From NCBI GenBank assembly GCA_964634365.1, contig CAZWJU010000001.1, forward strand, positions 86,585 to 150,584: 64,000 nucleotides of DNA. The letters are read 5' to 3'. The position numbers and the translations under genes were made by a program. Origin of the DNA: an uncultured Candidatus Saccharibacteria bacterium (lineage in GTDB: Bacteria > Patescibacteriota > Minisyncoccia > Phycocordibacterales > UBA9973). Shown in pieces: positions 8,097 through 63,120 of this stretch; position 1 is the stretch's first letter, and each line of letters begins with the position of its first letter. Under the pieces are notes generated by a model. That model did not search any database. It was not told the origin of the DNA and saw only the letters and a list, made by a program, of their open reading frames with translations.

Positions 8097-8486
8097 ATGA
8101 ATCATTTTGGAGAACATGTAACCTTGGATGGTTACGGGGGAGACGAAGAATTGCTAAACAGCAAAGATGTAGTACTGGCTTGTCTTAAAAATCTGCCTGA
8201 GCTACTCGACATGCATATACTCGCAGAGCCTGTTGTGTATTTTGCAAAAGGCAACGACGACAAAGATCCAGGTGGCTGGAGTGGATTTGTAGTGATAGAG
8301 GAGAGTCATATCAGTATCCATACATTTCCAAAAAGGGGATTTGTGAGTATCGATGTGTATACCTGCAAGAATGGTATGGATCAGAAATATATAGAAGATT
8401 ATTTTATAAAAGAATTCAAACTCACTGACACAGAAACGAACTTCATAATCCGAGGCAAGAAGTATCCTGAGAAGAATCTAGTGTAA
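8097..8486 (+). CDS. speH: S-adenosylmethionine decarboxylase proenzyme, pyruvoyl-dependent archaeal/Gram-positive type
   Basis: Motif EESHISIHTFPKRGFVSIDVYTC matches the AdoMetDC self-cleavage/active-site region (ESHISIHTWPE...IDVFTCG). Confidence 0.8.
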   Translation: MNHFGEHVTLDGYGGDEELLNSKDVVLACLKNLPELLDMHILAEPVVYFAKGNDDKDPGGWSGFVVIEESHISIHTFPKRGFVSIDVYTCKNGMDQKYIEDYFIKEFKLTDTETNFIIRGKKYPEKNLV

Positions 8487-28084: not shown

Positions 28085-28636
28085 ATGCATAAACAGAATC
28101 TGGCTTTTATTGATACTGAGACTACAGGACTTGATCCAGAAAATCATGAGATTATTCAGATTGGTTGTGTTTTGGTTTCTCAAAATGTAGATGCAGACGG
28201 CAATCAGGTATATGAAATACTCGAAGAGTTTGAGCTTAAAGTAAAGCCCGAGAAAATTGAAAACGCAGACAAGGTTGCTCTCCGTATAAACGGATACAAT
28301 GAAGCCGATTGGGTTTTTGCTTATACTCTAAAAGAGGCAATGCAGATATTCTCAGACAAAACAAAAGATGCGATTATGGTAGCGCACAATATGCCTTTTG
28401 ATTTTGCCTTCTTACTCAAAGCATTTTCTACAACAAAAGTAGAAAATAAATTGCACTATCATAAACTAGACACTATATCGATTGCTTATGCGAAAGCTAA
28501 AAAACGCGATGATATAAGTCGTTTCTCTCTACGCTTCTTGTGTGAAGTATTCAAAATAGAAAACAAAAATGCACATACTGCACTTTCAGACTGTAGAGCG
28601 ACTTTTGAACTTTATAAAAAGCTTATGAAGTTATAA
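28085..28636 (+). CDS. DEDDh 3'-5' exonuclease (DnaQ/epsilon-like)
   Basis: Exo I motif AFIDTETTGLD, Exo II MVAHNMPFDFAFL, Exo III HTALSDCRAT. Confidence 0.75.
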   Translation: MHKQNLAFIDTETTGLDPENHEIIQIGCVLVSQNVDADGNQVYEILEEFELKVKPEKIENADKVALRINGYNEADWVFAYTLKEAMQIFSDKTKDAIMVAHNMPFDFAFLLKAFSTTKVENKLHYHKLDTISIAYAKAKKRDDISRFSLRFLCEVFKIENKNAHTALSDCRATFELYKKLMKL

Positions 28637-28645
28637 TTTTCTTTT

Positions 28646-28664
28646 TTTGCAAAATTACAAAATA
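28646..28664 (+). promoter_or_regulatory. fourth copy of the TTTTGCAAAATTACAAAAT motif, 9 nt upstream of the mnmA GTG start
   Basis: Identical 19-mer to the motif clustered around the ArsR gene at 57.6-58.3 kb. Confidence 0.4.
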
Positions 28665-28672
28665 AAGGTAGA

Positions 28673-29752
28673 GTGTCTACTGTGAGAGAAAATAAATCTA
28701 AAAAAGTATTTGTAGGCGTTTCTGGAGGAGTGGATTCTTCAGTTGTTGCCCATATTCTAAAAAAAGACGGGTATGAAGTAACCGGTGTTTTTATTCGTAC
28801 TTGGACCCCAGACTTTATAGAGTGTACTTGGCGCGACGAGAGGCGAGATGCCATGCGGGTTTGTGCAAGCTTAGATATACCGTTTATGGAGTGTGATGCA
28901 GAGGAGGCTTACAAAAAAGGTGTTGCAGATTATATGATCGAAGAGTATAGACTGGGGCGTGTTCCAAACCCGGATGTTATGTGTAATCGAGAGGTGAAGT
29001 TCGGTGTGTTTTGGGATTTTGCGCGCTCTCACGGAGCAGATTTTATTGCTACTGGTCACTATGCACAGAACAGACTAAAAGACGGAAGCTATGAACTATT
29101 GGTAGGCAAAGATGATTCTAAAGATCAAAGCTATTTTCTATGGAAGTTAAACCAAGAAGATTTAGCACACACTCTTTTTCCAATTGGGCACTTAGACAAG
29201 ACAAAAGTAAGATCAATCGCAAAAAAAGCTGGATTGTTTACTGGAGAAAAGAAAGATTCTCAGGGAGTTTGTTTTTTGGGTCCTCTTGATATGAAAGATT
29301 TTTTGAAACACTATATAAAAACTAGCAAAGGATTTGTTTTAAATACAGACGGCGAGATTATAGGTGAACACGATGGTGCGCTATTTTTCACTCTAGGCGA
29401 AAGACATGGTTTTACTATTACAAAAAAGACAAATCAAGATACTCCATACTATGTTGTATCAAAAGATATAAATAAAAATACAATAACAGTTAGCCACGAA
29501 CCAAAATCTCTCGAAGCAGAAAAGAATATAAAAATTATAAATACAAACTGGATTAGTGTGGTGCCAGAAGAGGGTAAAATATTTTCTGCACAAGTCCGCT
29601 ACCATGGAGAATATTATCCTTGTTCGCTAATCGGTGTAAAAGACACAGGGTCCAGTGTGATTTTTGAAAATGAAAAACCTCTTGTCTCTAGTGGTCAATC
29701 TATAGTTTTGTATGATGGAGAAAAGTGTATAGGAGGTGGCGTGATTGCATAA
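28673..29752 (+). CDS. mnmA: tRNA-specific 2-thiouridylase MnmA
   Basis: PP-loop VFVGVSGGVDSSV, catalytic Cys region DVMCNREVKFG. 359 aa. GTG start. Confidence 0.9.
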   Translation: MSTVRENKSKKVFVGVSGGVDSSVVAHILKKDGYEVTGVFIRTWTPDFIECTWRDERRDAMRVCASLDIPFMECDAEEAYKKGVADYMIEEYRLGRVPNPDVMCNREVKFGVFWDFARSHGADFIATGHYAQNRLKDGSYELLVGKDDSKDQSYFLWKLNQEDLAHTLFPIGHLDKTKVRSIAKKAGLFTGEKKDSQGVCFLGPLDMKDFLKHYIKTSKGFVLNTDGEIIGEHDGALFFTLGERHGFTITKKTNQDTPYYVVSKDINKNTITVSHEPKSLEAEKNIKIINTNWISVVPEEGKIFSAQVRYHGEYYPCSLIGVKDTGSSVIFENEKPLVSSGQSIVLYDGEKCIGGGVIA

Positions 29753-45701: not shown

Positions 45702-46211
45702 ATGAAAAACAAAAAAGTTATAGTAAACGATAAAATGCAAAAAGGTTATAGTTATTTTCTAACTGAACCTATGGGTAAAAATTTTGCAAAAGATTTCAAG
45801 CCACAACTCTCACCAAAACAGATGCTTGCCCTCGGTGTATTTGGAGGTGTGTATATGCGTGACTGTACTCGCGAATTTCCACGTGACTGGTTTACGCGCG
45901 CTAAGTTTGCAAAAGACGCGCGCGAAGCGAAGATAAACTATTTTAAAGTAAATGCGTCGCAGCCACTTTCTGTCTGGAGAAAAAAAGGTTGGATATACAA
46001 AGATGATCCACGCGGATGGTTTCAGTGGTACTGTCGCTATTATATGGGGCGTAGAATTCCTGCAGAAGATGCTCGTCAGATAAAACGTTACAATGCTATT
46101 CGTCGACATGTCGGACAAGTTGTAGCAAATTGTAGAGTGGGGGATATAAATTGCCGACCTCGTCAGCGTCAGGCGCTACTGCACTGGGCGTATGATTCTC
46201 GAAAAATCTAA
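45702..46211 (+). CDS. conserved hypothetical protein, Arg/Trp/Tyr-rich (169 aa)
   Basis: Clean ORF 4 nt after msrA. Distinctive GWFQWYCRYYMGRR segment. Family not recognised. Confidence 0.45.
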   Translation: MKNKKVIVNDKMQKGYSYFLTEPMGKNFAKDFKPQLSPKQMLALGVFGGVYMRDCTREFPRDWFTRAKFAKDAREAKINYFKVNASQPLSVWRKKGWIYKDDPRGWFQWYCRYYMGRRIPAEDARQIKRYNAIRRHVGQVVANCRVGDINCRPRQRQALLHWAYDSRKI

Positions 46212-57519: not shown

Positions 57520-57595
57520 TAAATTTAAAAAAGTTATTTTGAAAAAATTGAATTTAATTAAATTGAACCCAACTCATCCATCCTGTATATCATTC

Positions 57596-57620
57596 TAGCA
57601 TTTTGCAAAATTACAAAATG
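57596..57620 (+). promoter_or_regulatory. palindromic promoter/operator motif AGCATTTTGCAAAATTACAAAATG (copy 1), 30 nt upstream of the DUF1801 gene
   Basis: Contains the inverted repeat CATTTTG/CAAAATG and the perfect palindrome TTTTGCAAAA, followed by an AT-rich -10-like box. Confidence 0.5.
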
Positions 57621-57649
57621 TCATAATTATTTAAACACAAAATATATCA

Positions 57650-58009
57650 ATGCAAACATATAAAAACATAAACGAATATATAAAAAACGTTCCGAAGGAG
57701 CATGTGGCGCGGGTGCGGGAGATGCGAGCGCTTTTGCAAAAGCTTGTGCCGGACGGAGAGGAGGCGATACGCTACGGTATGCCGACGATGCAGATCGAGG
57801 GCAAGAACTTGCTTCACTATGCAGCGATGAAGGGTCACTTCGGATTTTATCCCGCACCATCTGGTGTAAAAGTGTACGAGAAAGAATTGAAAGCAAAGGG
57901 GATAGAGTATTCAAAAGGTTGTATCCGTTTTCCATACGACAAGCCTCTGCCCGTGGCACTCATCCAGAAGATCATCAAATTCCGCCTCAGTGAAATAAAC
58001 AAAAAATAA
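57650..58009 (+). CDS. DUF1801 (YdhG/YdeI-like) domain protein, GC-rich gene
   Basis: KNINEYIKNVPKEH...RVREMRALLQKLVPDGEEAIRYGMPTMQIEGKNLLHYAAMKGHFGFYP matches the DUF1801 pattern. Coding region is much more GC-rich than its neighbours. Confidence 0.65.
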   Translation: MQTYKNINEYIKNVPKEHVARVREMRALLQKLVPDGEEAIRYGMPTMQIEGKNLLHYAAMKGHFGFYPAPSGVKVYEKELKAKGIEYSKGCIRFPYDKPLPVALIQKIIKFRLSEINKK

Positions 58010-58018
58010 ATTATCATT

Positions 58019-58044
58019 TCAGCATTTTGCAAAATTACAAAATG
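58019..58044 (+). promoter_or_regulatory. palindromic promoter/operator motif (copy 2), 19 nt upstream of the ArsR-family gene
   Basis: TCAGCATTTTGCAAAATTACAAAATG followed by ATATAAAAT. Confidence 0.5.
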
Positions 58045-58062
58045 ATATAAAATATATTTAAT

Positions 58063-58329
58063 ATGGATTTTAGAAAAATTGAGAGAATCGCAAAAGGTTT
58101 CGCAAACAAGCGTAGGCTTGAGATTCTGGAGCTCTTGGACCGCAAGCCAGAACTTTCAGTATCTGATATATCAGAAAAATTGAAGCTAGGCTATGAAAAT
58201 ACCTCTGACCATGTGCGCAAAATGACTTCTGCAGGACTCCTCATGAAAAGAAGTGATGGTCCAAATATCCGCCACAGACTAACTCCTCGCGCAAAAGACA
58301 TTCTAGCATTTTGCAAAAAGCTGAAATGA
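58063..58329 (+). CDS. ArsR/SmtB-family winged-helix transcriptional regulator (88 aa)
   Basis: NKRRLEILELLDRKPELSVSDISEKLKLGYENTSDHVRKMTSAGLL is the ArsR-type HTH. Confidence 0.75.
   Translation: MDFRKIERIAKGFANKRRLEILELLDRKPELSVSDISEKLKLGYENTSDHVRKMTSAGLLMKRSDGPNIRHRLTPRAKDILAFCKKLK
58301..58328 (+). promoter_or_regulatory. partial third copy of the motif (TTCTAGCATTTTGCAAAAAGCTGAAATG) overlapping the 3' end of the ArsR gene
   Basis: Shares TTCTAGCATTTTGCAAAA with copy 1, then GATATAAAT. Lies upstream of the DUF1761-like gene. Confidence 0.4.
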
Positions 58330-58384
58330 TATAAATATCTGCAGGTTGGTATCCAATTTATTTTTTTATTGTATAATTTATATT

Positions 58385-58859: not shown

Positions 58860-59092
58860 ATTTGATTTTTATTTTTTAGGTGATATGTTGTTTAAAACGA
58901 AGGCTTGACCAAAGTAGTGGCGAGCGAAATGGTTATGGGTCTAAAGTTCTTTCTTCTGAAGAGCGGTTGAGGGGTCCTGTGAAAGTGATACCCCAAGTAA
59001 AGCAGTCTTCGATTGCTTGAATTCTGCCAGCACCAGCTGGCGACCCTAATGCCTTTGTTAGCCTCGGTTTTGCGACCGAGGCTTTATTTTTA
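58860..59092 (+). ncRNA. candidate structured leader or small RNA ending in a strong intrinsic terminator
   Basis: About 330-nt ORF-free gap. Internal hairpin CCAGCACCAGCTGG. Terminator AGCCTCGGTTTTGCGACCGAGGCT + T-tract at 59060-59090, ~50 nt before the next start codon. No riboswitch class recognised by eye. Confidence 0.3.
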
Positions 59093-60018: not shown

Positions 60019-60273
60019 ATGAAATACATAATCGATGTTCGCACAAAAGAAGAGTTCGATAGTGGTGCAGTAGAAGGTGCACTGAACTTTGAACTTGCTC
60101 GGATCGAGGAGGGTGAGACACCCGATGTTCCGATAGATACAGAGCTGTATCTATATTGTCGCAGTGGCGGTAGATCTGGTAGAGCTCTGGAGATACTTTT
60201 ATCACATGGATTTACTAACGTCACAAACCTGGGTGGTCTTGAAGATGCAAAGAAATACTTTGCAAAAATTTGA
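60019..60273 (+). CDS. single-domain rhodanese-like sulfurtransferase
   Basis: 84 aa. Active-site loop YLYCRSGGRSGRA (CRxGxR) after IDVRTKEEFDSGAVEGALNF. Confidence 0.8.
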   Translation: MKYIIDVRTKEEFDSGAVEGALNFELARIEEGETPDVPIDTELYLYCRSGGRSGRALEILLSHGFTNVTNLGGLEDAKKYFAKI

Positions 60274-60286
60274 TATAATTATATAC

Positions 60287-60682
60287 ATGAACAACTTCAC
60301 TTCTTATTCGGAGCTTTTAAAACCCTCGTGGGCTCCACCGTCGTGGATATTTGGTCCAGTATGGACTTTTCTATACATATTGATCGCGTATTCATTTGGA
60401 ACTGTATTTTACAAACTAGTGACCAAGCAAATACCTTTTGTTGTCGCGCTACCGTTTATTTTAAATCTGATATTCAATTTTTCTTTTACATATTTTCAGT
60501 TCGGTCTCAAAAACAACACTCTTGCTGCGATAGATATATTGCTAGTACTAGGGACACTTGTGTGGGCGATGATCGCAATATTTCCACACGCTCGCTGGAT
60601 CACGTATATACAGATTCCGTATGTGCTCTGGGTTAGTTTCGCTACAGTATTACAACTTACAATCACATTTATAAATAGATAA
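60287..60682 (+). CDS. tspO: TspO/MBR family tryptophan-rich sensory protein
   Basis: LKPSWAPPSWIFGPVWTFLYILIAYSF and five TM helices. Internal ATG used as start. Confidence 0.75.
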   Translation: MNNFTSYSELLKPSWAPPSWIFGPVWTFLYILIAYSFGTVFYKLVTKQIPFVVALPFILNLIFNFSFTYFQFGLKNNTLAAIDILLVLGTLVWAMIAIFPHARWITYIQIPYVLWVSFATVLQLTITFINR

Positions 60683-60691
60683 ATAAAATAT

Positions 60692-61120
60692 ATGACAAAA
60701 ATTTTTTCAAAAGTGTTCTCCATCACTACACTTCGCTTGTTGATGGGCTTTATATTTCTCTGGGCTTTTTTAGACAAGACTTTTGGTTTAGGGATTGCGA
60801 CCGAGTCTAGCAAGGCCTGGATCGCTGGCGGAAGTCCAACAACAGGATTTCTTGCAAACGCCGTCCAGGGACCTTTTGCTACATTTTTCAATAGCTTGGC
60901 GGGAGTTGTGCTGGTTGATTGGCTTTTCATGCTCGGACTTTTATTTGTCGGAGTAACATTGATCCTAAACAGATACGTGAAGTGGGGAGCGGTCGCAGGT
61001 ATTTTTATGATGCTACTCATGTATGCGTCTCTGCTTTTCCCTGAAAATAATCCTTTTGTCGACGATCACTTGGTATATGCAGTATTGCTAGGATATATCG
61101 CAATAAATTCCAAGAGATAA
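60692..61120 (+). CDS. DoxX-family membrane protein
   Basis: LRLLMGFIFLWAFLDKTFGLG and four TM helices match the DoxX-like pattern. Confidence 0.55.
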   Translation: MTKIFSKVFSITTLRLLMGFIFLWAFLDKTFGLGIATESSKAWIAGGSPTTGFLANAVQGPFATFFNSLAGVVLVDWLFMLGLLFVGVTLILNRYVKWGAVAGIFMMLLMYASLLFPENNPFVDDHLVYAVLLGYIAINSKR

Positions 61121-61145
61121 AACTGGTACAAACTGATCGGTTTTT

Positions 61146-61424
61146 ATGAAGAAGAATTTTACAATCAAAACAAAGGTGTGGCGATGGCCGGGAGACGGTG
61201 GCTGGCATTTTGTAACACTAGACAAGAAGCTTTCGCAAGATATTCGAAAAGTATTTACCAAAGGTTTTGTAAAAATCCGCGTCGAGATTGGCAAGAGTGC
61301 TTGGGATACTTCGCTTTTTCCTCACAAAGAATCTGGATACTTACTCTGTATAAACAAGAAAATCCGCTCCAAGGAGGGGATTTTCGAAGGCGATGAGGTG
61401 AGTATAAAGATAAAAGTGCTCTAA
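61146..61424 (+). CDS. DUF1905 domain protein
   Basis: FTIKTKVWRWPGDGGWHFVTLDKKLSQDIRK...GDEVSIKI matches the DUF1905 beta-barrel signature. Confidence 0.65.
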   Translation: MKKNFTIKTKVWRWPGDGGWHFVTLDKKLSQDIRKVFTKGFVKIRVEIGKSAWDTSLFPHKESGYLLCINKKIRSKEGIFEGDEVSIKIKVL

Positions 61425-61675
61425 GCTTTTTTTAGAAATTCTGTTTTTAAAACAATACCTTTCATACCATCTACACTGCACTCTATCTCGTTTGGTTCAT
61501 CAGTTAGGCGGATACTTTTAACTTTAGTGCCTTTCTTTATAACAATAGAGCTGCCTTTTAATTTTAAGTCTTTAATCAAAATGACAGAGTCTCCGTGTGC
61601 GAGAGTGTTGCCATTGCTATCTTTTGTTTCGATCAATTCTTCTATTTCGTCTTCATCTTCGTATACTTTGTTCAT
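61421..61675 (-). CDS. PhnA/YjdC-like protein (C-terminal domain only)
   Basis: DSNGNTLAHGDSVILIKDLKLKGSSIVIKKGTKVKSIRLTDEPNEIECSVDGMKGIVLKTEFLKKA closely follows the PhnA C-domain consensus. Confidence 0.7.
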   Translation of the reverse strand: MNKVYEDEDEIEELIETKDSNGNTLAHGDSVILIKDLKLKGSSIVIKKGTKVKSIRLTDEPNEIECSVDGMKGIVLKTEFLKKA

Positions 61676-61724
61676 AAAAATGATTATATACTCAATCTAA
61701 TTTAAATGGTAGGATTCGATACAT

Positions 61725-61955
61725 ATGCAAGAACACCCAAACAACCCACGGCAAGGCAAAACGCTCGAGCACATACTCAATTTTCTAGTTGAGCAATACG
61801 GCTGGGAAGAGCTCGGCAACGAGATCAATATCAATTGTTTTATAAATGACCCGAGTATCAAATCTAGTCTGACATTTTTACGCAGAACCCCATGGGCTCG
61901 CAAGAAGGTTGAAAATCTGTATATCTATACTACAAAGAAGACGGGTCTAAAATAA
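61725..61955 (+). CDS. DUF2132-like small protein
   Basis: [51 protein letters not shown] matches DUF2132/VF530. Confidence 0.5.
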
Positions 61956-61965
61956 AACTAAAGGC

Positions 61966-62472
61966 ATGGTGATCATTTTAAATAAAACAGAAGATAAATT
62001 TTTTCAAATCAAAAACACACGCAATGGTAACGGTGTTTTCACTCGCACCAATTTCAAAAAAGATAAAAAACTTTTTGAGATAAAAGGGAAGTTTGTCACT
62101 TGCGATGAAGACGACGATATGGACGAGACAGAAAGATCAAATGCATATCGTTTCAATAAAAATCTTTTTATCAGCCCCAAAAACAGGTTAGCTGATATGG
62201 TAAATCACTCGTGCCTACCCAATGCAAAAGTTTTAAAAGATAAAAATAAACTCTATATATATTCAATTTGCGACATCTTGAAAAATGAAGAGGTGCTGAT
62301 CGACTATTCGACAATCTTGGCTAGTGACGATATCTGGACCATGAAGTGTAACTGTGGGGCTAGTGGGTGCAGGAAGTTTGTTAGAAATTTTACAAAGCTA
62401 CCCAAATCAATCCAAAATCAGTATATAAAAGACAAAGTTGTACCGGACTTTATATTGAAAATACGAGATTAG
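61966..62472 (+). CDS. SET-domain protein (putative lysine methyltransferase) with post-SET Cys cluster
   Basis: NHSCLPNA (classic SET NHSCxPN motif), ELIDYS (Tyr-containing C-terminal SET motif), CNCGASGCRKF post-SET. Confidence 0.75.
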   Translation: MVIILNKTEDKFFQIKNTRNGNGVFTRTNFKKDKKLFEIKGKFVTCDEDDDMDETERSNAYRFNKNLFISPKNRLADMVNHSCLPNAKVLKDKNKLYIYSICDILKNEEVLIDYSTILASDDIWTMKCNCGASGCRKFVRNFTKLPKSIQNQYIKDKVVPDFILKIRD

Positions 62473-62513
62473 CGCACTGTACTATTTATGAAAATTAGTT
62501 TAATATTGAACAT

Positions 62514-62654
62514 ATGGCAAAAAGAATAAGTCAGGATATCAAGCCTCAAAATCATCACCCTCGCAAGACAAAGAAGCGTCTTGCTATAAAAAAGGCGATG
62601 CTTGCGGCTAGAAAACCAAAGAAGAATCGCAAAAGTAAGAGAAGAAAAAAGTAA
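62514..62654 (+). CDS. possible tiny polybasic protein (46 aa)
   Basis: MAKRISQDIKPQNHHPRKTKKRLAIKKAMLAARKPKKNRKSKRRKK. ATG 40 nt after the SET gene, followed by a hairpin terminator at 62663-62695. Not in the ORF track. Confidence 0.3.
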   Translation: MAKRISQDIKPQNHHPRKTKKRLAIKKAMLAARKPKKNRKSKRRKK

Positions 62655-62662
62655 ATTCTCAC

Positions 62663-62695
62663 AAAAAACCCTCATGAACTGAGAGGTTTTTTGTT
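62663..62695. terminator. intrinsic terminator (AAAAAACCCTCATGAACTGAGAGGTTTTTTG)
   Basis: Hairpin plus T-tract. Confidence 0.55.
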
Positions 62696-62721
62696 TGTGT
62701 TTTGTGTTGTATAATAAAAGT

Positions 62722-63120
62722 ATGAAAGGATATAAAGACAACATAGAAAAACTAACACTCAAAAATGAGAATTTTCGAAAAGTATTGTATACAGGCAAGC
62801 ATTCTCAGCTTGTGCTGATGACTCTTTTGCCAGGTGAAGAGATCGGTCTAGAAGTTCACAAAGAAAATGACCAATTTTTCAGATTTGAAAAAGGTGTGGG
62901 TCAGGTGATAATCGATGGCAATATTTATGAAGTTAGCGACGGAGATGCTGTTGTTGTACCAGCTGGTGCAGAACACAACGTAGTCAACACTTCAAGCACA
63001 GAGAGTTTGAGACTTTATACTATATATTCTCCAGCTCACCACAAAGACGGGATCGTACGAGAGACAAAGAAAGATGCTATGGAAAACGAAGCAGAATTTG
63101 ATGGAACCACAACAGAATAG
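62722..63120 (+). CDS. cupin-domain protein
   Basis: Cupin motifs LLPGEEIGLEVHKENDQFFRFEKGVG and GDAVVVPAGAEHNVVN. Confidence 0.7.
   Translation: MKGYKDNIEKLTLKNENFRKVLYTGKHSQLVLMTLLPGEEIGLEVHKENDQFFRFEKGVGQVIIDGNIYEVSDGDAVVVPAGAEHNVVNTSSTESLRLYTIYSPAHHKDGIVRETKKDAMENEAEFDGTTTE

Follow-up and report, generated by a model that had tools for sequence, protein, structure and literature searches.

A small ArsR-type regulator of Patescibacteria with a probable operator embedded in the last codons of its own gene

A palindrome of about 30 bp recurs around and within the gene for an 88-amino-acid (aa) ArsR-type regulator in a stretch of 64,000 nucleotides (nt) from an uncultured Candidatus Saccharibacteria bacterium (assembly GCA_964634365.1, contig CAZWJU010000001.1, positions 86,585 to 150,584 of the forward strand); this whole 64-kb stretch is referred to here as the window. 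We propose, with a probability of about 0.75, that the palindrome is the operator of the adjacent regulator, and that gene and sites form an autoregulated repressor–operator module in which one operator is embedded at the 3′ end of the regulator's coding sequence. The proposal is carried by the sites, their conservation, a codon constraint, their placement in promoters, and the co-variation of the operator core with the recognition helix, each of which comes directly from the computation. ArsR-type autoregulators are of a known kind; an operator within the regulator's own C-terminal codons across several subfamilies is apparently undescribed, and searches of the literature for the core sequence and for regulators of Parcubacteria and Patescibacteria yielded no description of either the motif or the regulator. 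The features of the local unit are as follows, with a slash marking the centre of each palindrome and scores in bits taken from a position matrix built from the embedded and upstream sites of 79 related loci.

57591-57620, plus strand: candidate operator copy 1, CATTCTAGCATTTTG/CAAAATTACAAAATG, dyad between 57605 and 57606; exact match, 28.2 bits
57650-58009, plus strand: DUF1801 gene, 119 aa (Pfam PF08818, E = 5.6e-14)
58015-58044, plus strand: candidate operator copy 2, CATTTCAGCATTTTG/CAAAATTACAAAATG, dyad between 58029 and 58030; exact match, 23.0 bits
58026-58053, plus strand: promoter-like pair TTTGCA-16 nt-TAAAAT, called independently by a consensus scan
58063-58329, plus strand: regulator gene, minimal ArsR/SmtB-type winged-helix protein of 88 aa (Pfam HTH_5, AlphaFold2, Foldseek)
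58299-58328, plus strand: candidate operator copy 3, embedded, CATTCTAGCATTTTG/CAAAAAGCTGAAATG, dyad between 58313 and 58314; 36.9 bits
58385-58807, plus strand: DUF1761 membrane-protein gene (Pfam PF08570, E = 7.3e-22)
59060-59083, plus strand: intrinsic terminator, 10-bp stem with 6 GC pairs and a T tail

Copy 3, the top-scoring site of the window on the family matrix, encodes I-L-A-F-C-K-K-L-K together with the first two bases of the stop codon, and hence the end of helix alpha5. Copies 1 and 2 both consist of a canonical left arm and core with a variant right arm, TTACAAAAT; copy 1 is followed by TGTCATAAT and lies 29 nt before DUF1801, which would be the first gene of the local unit to be regulated, and copy 2 overlaps the predicted promoter of the regulator. 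The terminator at 59060-59083 closes the DUF1801–regulator–DUF1761 unit.

An earlier sequence-only reading of the window had described the repeat as a 22-mer, and the exact 22-mer CATTTTGCAAAATTACAAAATG is indeed present at 57599-57620 and 58023-58044; a 19-mer, TTTTGCAAAATTACAAAAT, occurs exactly three times in the window, one of them near mnmA at 28645-28663, one base away from the 28646-28664 first reported. In shuffled sequences, with up to three mismatches allowed, about 0.01 matches are expected for the 22-mer and about 0.19 for the 19-mer, and no shuffle reached the observed count. The 22-mer is nevertheless not the full unit, the common block being a longer 30-mer that starts CATTCTAGCATTTTG/CAAAA, and the CATTTTG-N8-CAAAATG repeat first taken for its symmetry gives way to a family-wide axis at the centre of TTTTG/CAAAA with arms TTCTAGyr and yrCTAGAA. 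Copy 3 had been regarded as partial: AGCATTTTGCAAAA at 58305-58318 falls within the last codons of the regulator, but the site is a full 30-mer (58299-58328) that extends into the TGA stop codon and is not degenerate, and that it is a conserved, codon-constraining operator is the main feature that was missed. The distances first given from copies to start codons were right to within 1 nt (the measured values are 29 nt for DUF1801, 18 nt for the regulator, and 9 nt for mnmA), and the gene calls – DUF1801, an ArsR-type winged helix-turn-helix protein, DUF1761, and MnmA – are borne out by Pfam and NCBIfam.

The regulator scores above the Pfam cut-offs for HTH_5 (32.4 bits; cut-off 22), HTH_20 (31.5; 27), and HTH_24 (32.9; 21.9), and just below that of NCBIfam HTH_metalloreg (51.7 bits; cut-off 55). 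Its AlphaFold2 model, with a predicted local distance difference test (pLDDT) score of 91.8, has the order alpha1-alpha2-alpha3-alphaR-beta1-beta2-alpha5, with helices at residues 3-13, 16-27, 33-40, 44-56, and 75-87 and strands at 60-65 and 68-73. Foldseek matches the model to CadC, PagR, CzrA, and NolR at template-modelling (TM) scores of 0.83-0.89, and a profile search of PDB sequences returned CadC (E = 4.7e-10), HlyU (~1.5e-9), and CzrA (~1e-6). The predicted structure is thus a canonical ArsR/SmtB fold, in which alpha1 is N-terminal and alpha5, the dimerisation helix of this family, C-terminal; the second half of alpha5 (residues 75-87) is encoded by the embedded copy. More than 300 homologues with 64-77% identity were found in Parcubacteria/Paceibacteria (75% being the best identity among the GTDB representatives returned), and the C-terminus, ILxFCKxL, is almost invariant among them. 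An alignment of 33 homologues contains a single Cys (C84) and no CXC motif, in keeping with an earlier remark that a Cys pair is missing; the short alpha5 carries, by inspection, no His/Asp/Glu ligand set, and none of the known metal and thiol sensor sites of ArsR-family proteins (alpha3N, alpha5, and others) is present in the regulator. The protein is a member of the fold and not a recognisable metal or persulfide sensor.

The 79 loci come from a scan of one genome per GTDB species, range from 36 to 58% GC, and have record titles naming Kaiser-, Wolfe-, Nomura-, Vogel-, Taylor-, Adler-, Lipton-, and Moranbacteria as well as Paceibacterota. The embedded copy is present in every one: the gene closes, over ~30 nt, with aTTCTAGyrTTTTGCAAAAyrCTAGAAT and the stop codon, centred on TTTTG/CAAAA, with a single core mismatch at one locus. 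In 77 of the 79 there is another full copy, 24-84 nt ahead of the start codon, and the family consensus is a palindrome of ~30 bp, TATTCTAGTrTTTTG/CAAAAyACTAGAATA, with an invariant 10-bp core. Scores on the family matrix are bimodal: 204 sites in ~1.2 Mb reach 14 bits or more, hardly any fall at 6-26 bits, and the high-scoring sites are concentrated within ~2.5 kb of the regulator or a paralogue gene, ahead of individual small genes. The predicted regulator–operator pair therefore appears to be conserved throughout Paceibacteria/Parcubacteria, and with an upstream copy so frequent, an embedded copy universal, and no more than one core mismatch, the original suggestion that the operator belongs to the adjacent ArsR regulator, and that this protein is autoregulatory, is very probably correct.

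A codon alignment of 80 regulator genes separates the end of the gene from its body. Conserved residues in the gene body use between two and six synonymous codons, the commonest at frequencies of 0.23-0.80 and mostly 0.3-0.6; among the last ten codons the following frequencies are found.

S79: TCT, 0.92
L81: CTA, 0.96 (six-fold degenerate)
F83: TTT, 1.00
C84: TGC, 0.99
K85: AAA, 1.00
E88: GAA, 1.00

The last ten codons are under constraint at the nucleotide level. This constraint on the DNA is independent of coding, because the invariant core recurs in the upstream copy, which does not code for protein; frozen codons and a core shared with non-coding DNA mean, therefore, that the invariant F-C-K is at least partly dictated by the operator. 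The invariant Cys84, the only Cys of the protein, would then be, at least in part, a by-product of the operator core.

The same arrangement extends beyond the subfamily to which the window's regulator belongs. A profile search of 1.84 billion representatives gave 206 clusters at E <= 1e-10; among the top 150, eight end in FCK and most end in IL(K/A)F(L/V)R(T/A)LE. Four subfamilies, named by their C-termini, compare as follows.

ILxFCKxL (the window's): helix GYEN.SDH.RK; site ...TTTTGCAAAA...; upstream and embedded copies
ILKFLRTLE-stop: helix IN.KTAS.H..RL; site ATTCTAAaGTTCTTAAGAACtTTAGAAT, core GTTCTTAAGAAC; embedded copy and a copy 32-58 nt upstream of the ATG
ILEFYRILE-stop (L208): helix IELKNTAQHVAKL; site ATTCTAGAATTCTATAGAATTCTAGAAT, core GAATTCTATAGAATTC; embedded copy and upstream copy
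TLKFIKDLK-stop (L210, L211): helix MTLKLSSAHLKRL; no embedded palindrome

The layout of the second subfamily was found in four of four independent loci (L201, L202, L204, and L206). The outer arms, ATTCTA..TAGAAT, are common to the subfamilies, and the core changes with the recognition helix. The two-site layout thus looks like a design of the family, and the palindrome is no automatic consequence of the protein helix, because the fourth subfamily lacks the embedded copy. Some genomes have two or three paralogous regulators, each beside its own class of operator arm, and within one genome each paralogue has its own class at the upstream and embedded sites alike. Regulators of the CTAACA class have Arg or Lys at the wing tip, where the others mostly have Gly-Pro, Asn, or Ser, an association that is suggestive and confounded by phylogeny. 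Among the loci with paralogues, L032, L040, and L070 come from one genome (E14_metabat.bin.131), and further paralogues lie at L022:18369 and L040:16486.

The position of the upstream copy relative to promoter elements is equally regular. At copy 2 the -35-like hexamer is the operator core itself, the -10 box occupies +19 to +24 relative to the dyad, with the ATG 9 nt further on; in orthologous loci the modal position of the regulator ATG is +31 from the dyad, and the same -10 position is again the modal one. A TANNNT box ends 5-8 nt before the regulator ATG in 51 of 78 loci, and a Shine-Dalgarno-like sequence precedes the regulator in only two of 78. This geometry indicates that the regulator mRNAs are probably leaderless or nearly so, with the palindrome lying over the -35/spacer region; the upstream copy, being in that region, would therefore be outside the regulator's transcript. 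A TATAAT-like box had been reported after every copy in the window, and one does follow three of them; none follows the copy near mnmA, where the sole such box is upstream of the copy. A TGTATAAT box (58370-58377) stands 7 nt before the ATG of DUF1761, with no Shine-Dalgarno sequence, and many other gene starts in the window have a -10 box 6-7 nt before the ATG and likewise no Shine-Dalgarno sequence; leaderless mRNAs may, as this suggests, be common in the host and its relatives.

From these arrangements we infer binding, repression, and a roadblock. A dimer of the 88-aa regulator would recognise the ~30-bp palindrome, and its binding at copy 2 would exclude RNA polymerase and give negative autoregulation, because the core is the -35-like hexamer, the -10 box lies at +19 to +24, and the transcript is nearly leaderless; binding at copy 1 would cause the same exclusion at DUF1801. 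Copy 3 would constrain the C-terminal peptide of the dimerisation helix, ILxFCKxL, and its synonymous sites alike. Like O3 for LacI, it could serve as an auxiliary operator or roadblock at which polymerase halts no later than the stop codon, so limiting the regulator's own synthesis as well as read-through into downstream DNA. In some genomes the TAGAAT arm of the embedded copy may also double as the -10 box of a leaderless downstream gene.

What lies downstream of the embedded copy differs between loci. A co-directional open reading frame (ORF) starts 13-152 nt from the embedded dyad in 61 of the 79; according to the ORF calls, the downstream ORF of seven loci starts at an ATG inside the right arm (an ATGA overlap), and in some loci the arm's TAGAAT stands 5-7 nt before the downstream ATG, a leaderless geometry. 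The embedded operator may sometimes serve the downstream gene as well. The copy is nonetheless intact where the next gene is convergent, as with RuvC in L034 and GH18 in L078, and because it is universal and independent of the gene downstream, its role is most probably tied to the regulator's own gene.

The closest mechanistic precedent is LacI, which when bound at O3 roadblocks polymerase at the end of lacI and gives rise to a truncated mRNA and SsrA tagging (PMC3711431). In both systems the transcription unit of the repressor itself carries an operator at its 3′ end, here in codons 79-88 plus the stop codon in all 79 loci and in two sister subfamilies. They differ in protein family (LacI/GalR there, ArsR-type here) and in the nature of the site: O3 is a weak auxiliary site that loops with O1, whereas here there is no phasing of the looping type, and the embedded site is the best-scoring one, covers the stop codon, dictates the peptide, and is kept in all species examined. 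With the ArsR/SmtB autorepressors CadC, CzrA, SmtB, NolR, PagR, and HlyU the regulator shares its fold (TM 0.83-0.89; CadC profile E = 5e-10) and the arrangement of a small, presumably dimeric winged-helix protein beside a palindrome overlapping its own promoter. Unlike them it is minimal (88-90 aa), lacks alpha3N, alpha5, or other metal sites and sensor Cys pairs, has a 30-bp palindrome with an invariant 10-bp core and a second operator in its own last ten codons, and belongs to a family confined to Patescibacteria.

Transcriptional regulation in the ultra-small bacteria of the candidate phyla radiation (CPR)/Patescibacteria is poorly characterised, and a regulator conserved at 64-77% identity across many candidate phyla, which comes with a predicted operator, a predicted leaderless promoter architecture, and predicted local targets, is a good point of entry. 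The embedded operator is a clear example from nature of a protein code and a DNA-binding code that overlap, and the finding that invariant residues, including the sole Cys, can be explained by selection at the nucleotide level urges caution in inferring sensor residues from conservation. Should the roadblock prove true, what is a curiosity in LacI and O3 would become a conserved design principle in reduced genomes.

A more far-reaching version of the mechanism is speculative, and we would set the odds against it. It treats a large family of minimal ArsR-like regulators in Patescibacteria as a self-referential dual-coding module, in which the bound operator would encode the protein's own alpha5 and stop codon, and a polymerase stalled there would produce non-stop mRNA and feedback through trans-translation. 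Operator specificity and C-terminus would co-evolve, FCK, FLR, and FYR going with the TTTTGCAAAA, GTTCTTAAGAAC, and GAATTCTATAGAATTC cores, and regulator plus operator would form a portable cassette that brings any gene landing downstream of it under control.

Several points weigh against reading the palindrome simply as the operator of a repressor. The whole case rests on comparative sequence analysis, and repression rather than activation is assumed from the behaviour of the family and the position of the operator. A subset of loci has TGATATAAT at +29 to +37, which places the dyad near -43; activators also use that position, and activation is therefore possible for this subset. No helical phasing was found in the 283-357 bp that separate the two operators (Rayleigh test, periods of 10-11.3 bp, p > 0.25), which leaves DNA looping between them unsupported. 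Copy 3 is not obviously an operator of DUF1761, because that gene has a -10 box of its own ~60 nt downstream; DUF1761 is possibly also reached by read-through from the regulator.

The asymmetry of many sites is the main difficulty. In the window the intergenic copies are canonical on the left and carry the variant TTACAAAAT on the right, and such hybrids are conserved in other species: a second class of right arm, TTACAAAAT[A/G] or TTACGTAAT, is combined with a canonical left arm in window copies 1, 2, and 4 and in L044, L048, L049, L079, L159, L167, L170, L177, and L198. The variant arm is the gene-proximal or downstream one in ~12 of 13 interpretable hybrid cases, a conserved asymmetry that the simple model of a homodimer on a palindrome fails to explain. 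Genuine sites also occur inside the coding regions of housekeeping genes (alaS, mnmA, and an F420-ligase-like gene). The copy near mnmA in the window is located as follows.

28635-28664, plus strand: copy 4, AATTTTCTTTTTTTG/CAAAATTACAAAATA; exact 19-mer
28673-29752: MnmA gene

Copy 4 consists of the core and variant right arm only, has no canonical left arm, and fills the 36-nt gap between a dnaQ-like gene and mnmA; it scores 14.7 bits, against 23-37 bits for the other three copies, and no promoter or terminator was called in its region. It is not a chance occurrence, but a weak or half-canonical site inside an operon. When metagenomes were scanned for the exact 19-mer, 120 hits were returned, mostly chance matches in unrelated AT-rich DNA, with about nine genuine loci that have the canonical left arm. 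Hits at L083, L107, and L115 fall in group II intron reverse-transcriptase genes, with YADDFVILQN on the opposite strand; genes of this type will yield false positives in any scan with the motif. At L087 a site identical in 30 of 30 nt to window copy 1 lies inside alaS (residues ~377-387), whose product, alanyl-tRNA synthetase (AlaRS), is 56% identical to the window's and aligns without gaps at the site. The site of L097 lies inside mnmA (+2 aa in the alignment) and shares TTTTGCAAAATTACAAAATAAAGG with window copy 4, and that of L122 is inside the F420-ligase-like gene. All three are hybrid operators read in frame (..SSILQNYK..) within variable regions of the housekeeping genes, and in the dnaQ-mnmA-alaS cluster the site recurs in three species at three different positions.

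Sites of this kind are one reason to consider that the protein might be a centromere-binding or nucleoid factor, comparable to AspA or to ParB-parS, with autoregulation as a side effect. The PDB matches of the regulator include the archaeal AspA, which binds centromeres and has an ArsR-like fold (E = 4e-5; TM 0.77), the regulator is unusually well conserved across named candidate phyla, and its palindromes are found within and beside its own gene as well as in other coding DNA, as with ParB-parS, where one Bacillus subtilis parS lies within spo0J. We consider this unlikely, since no ParA-like family occurs among the window neighbours or among the top families of 114 neighbouring proteins, and no ParA or ParB partner was seen. 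The sites are tightly spaced, in the manner of promoters, to -10 boxes and start codons; they keep close to the regulator or a paralogue and precede single small genes; and paralogues with private operator classes fit a set of regulators better than a chromosome-wide system.

A role in RNA, in which the palindrome forms a hairpin in the regulator mRNA that affects stability, processing, or translational coupling, is less probable again, at about one chance in twenty by our estimate of the evidence. The consensus palindrome does fold at -18.9 kcal/mol against -2.4 for shuffles, its arms co-vary beyond shuffled controls at positions ±6, 7, 8, 10, 11, 12, and 15, and the embedded copy is transcribed, its right arm containing the start of the downstream ORF in the ORF calls for seven loci. 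In most loci, however, the upstream copy is in the promoter, ahead of both the -10 box and the leaderless ATG; the variable positions are only 55-81% complementary; the window copies and conserved hybrids keep the sequence and not the hairpin (-5 to -6 kcal/mol, with different pairing); the palindrome has no loop; and its core changes with the recognition helix across subfamilies. A search of the window against Rfam gave no family at gathering score and only chance-level hits near the sites. A sub-threshold match resembling large-subunit ribosomal RNA (58907-59000, 23 bits) was an artefact that vanished when the search region was extended past 59000.

The sequence-only reading had gone on to propose a sulfur-stress regulon, in which the operator would define a set of sulfur or persulfide genes (rhodanese, DoxX, MnmA) under a CstR/SqrR/BigR-like sensor. 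In its favour, the window has a rhodanese gene 1.7 kb downstream of the regulator and a 19-mer copy ahead of mnmA, the embedded site of one other genome (L006) is immediately followed by a rhodanese gene, and BigR and SqrR, which share the fold, are distant structural matches. The genes around the regulator nevertheless tell against it. In the 79 loci, which extend at most 10 kb to either side of the regulator, TspO is found in 17, DUF1905 in 11, cupin in 10, rhodanese in three, and MnmA in none, and the neighbours have no sulfur theme. Genes beside other copies and the embedded sites are heterogeneous: HAD hydrolases and HI0933-like flavoproteins occur at three loci each; MscL, TspO, DUF1905, OmdA/YdeI, GIY-YIG, ABC-F, LapA-domain, and GNAT proteins at two each; and rhodanese, YjdM, cupin, and extra regulator paralogues are also represented. 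Clustering of 299 neighbouring ORFs gave no dominant family besides the regulator and antisense artefacts. Neither in the window nor in the 4.3 kb that follow does a site precede the rhodanese, TspO, or DoxX-like genes; the single Cys has a codon that is part of the operator core, and the Cys pair that defines the BigR, SqrR, and CstR persulfide/sulfite repressors is absent, as is any conserved link to sulfur genes; and the protein reaches 19.5 bits on the NCBIfam BigR model, whose cut-off is 155. On these neighbourhood statistics the sulfur regulon was rejected, and we regard it as very improbable.

The genes in question form part of a small island of accessory genes at 60019-63120 and beyond the window end, which partly recurs near the regulator elsewhere and contains rhodanese, TspO, DoxX-like, DUF1905, YjdM, VF530, SET, cupin, and HI0933-like genes; no site stands ahead of any island gene in the window.

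There is equally little to be said for the palindrome as a small mobile repeat, similar to a miniature inverted-repeat transposable element (MITE) or a repetitive extragenic palindrome (REP), that is merely associated with the regulator. Several copies occur per genome, the 30/30-identical copy is found both upstream of DUF1801 and in the alaS of another species, although the two AlaRS proteins share only 56% identity, and positions differ in the dnaQ-mnmA-alaS cluster of three genomes. The coding copies are not insertions, however, given the gapless AlaRS alignment and a difference of only 2 aa in MnmA, and no target duplications or terminal structures were seen. Relative to the regulator gene, the two positions are constant across 79 species, and they recur in two sister subfamilies that have other cores; such fixity points to selection for function and not to spread.

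That the motif is the organism's generic -35/-10 architecture can be set aside almost entirely: the core does resemble a -35 hexamer (TTGCAA) and -10-like boxes follow three copies, but the motif occupies only three of the 46 intergenic gaps of at least 30 nt in the window, other genes there have sigma70-like TTGACA-N17-TATAAT or extended -10 promoters without it, and the 1.14 Mb of related loci hold ~2.6 high-scoring sites per locus, mostly adjoining the regulator. Frequent occurrence at promoters was what the sequence-only reading had named as telling against a specific operator, and the count of three gaps in 46 supports the specific operator that we propose.

Cores without the canonical arms are also present in the window. 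There are seven perfect TTTTGCAAAA cores altogether, where a first-order Markov model predicts 0.53, and three of them lie inside coding regions with non-canonical flanks, at 8240-8249, 45782-45791, and 57732-57741, the last within DUF1801 and between copies 1 and 2. These score 3.0, 3.9, and -19.1 on the family matrix and could be either weak sites or chance occurrences. Among the related loci, L066 does not have the usual upstream copy, and a second partial copy of the regulator 3′ end (..GGGGAATCTGTTCTAGTGTTTTGCAAAAGAC..) lies ~58 nt after its stop codon, where it resembles a local duplication of the embedded operator.

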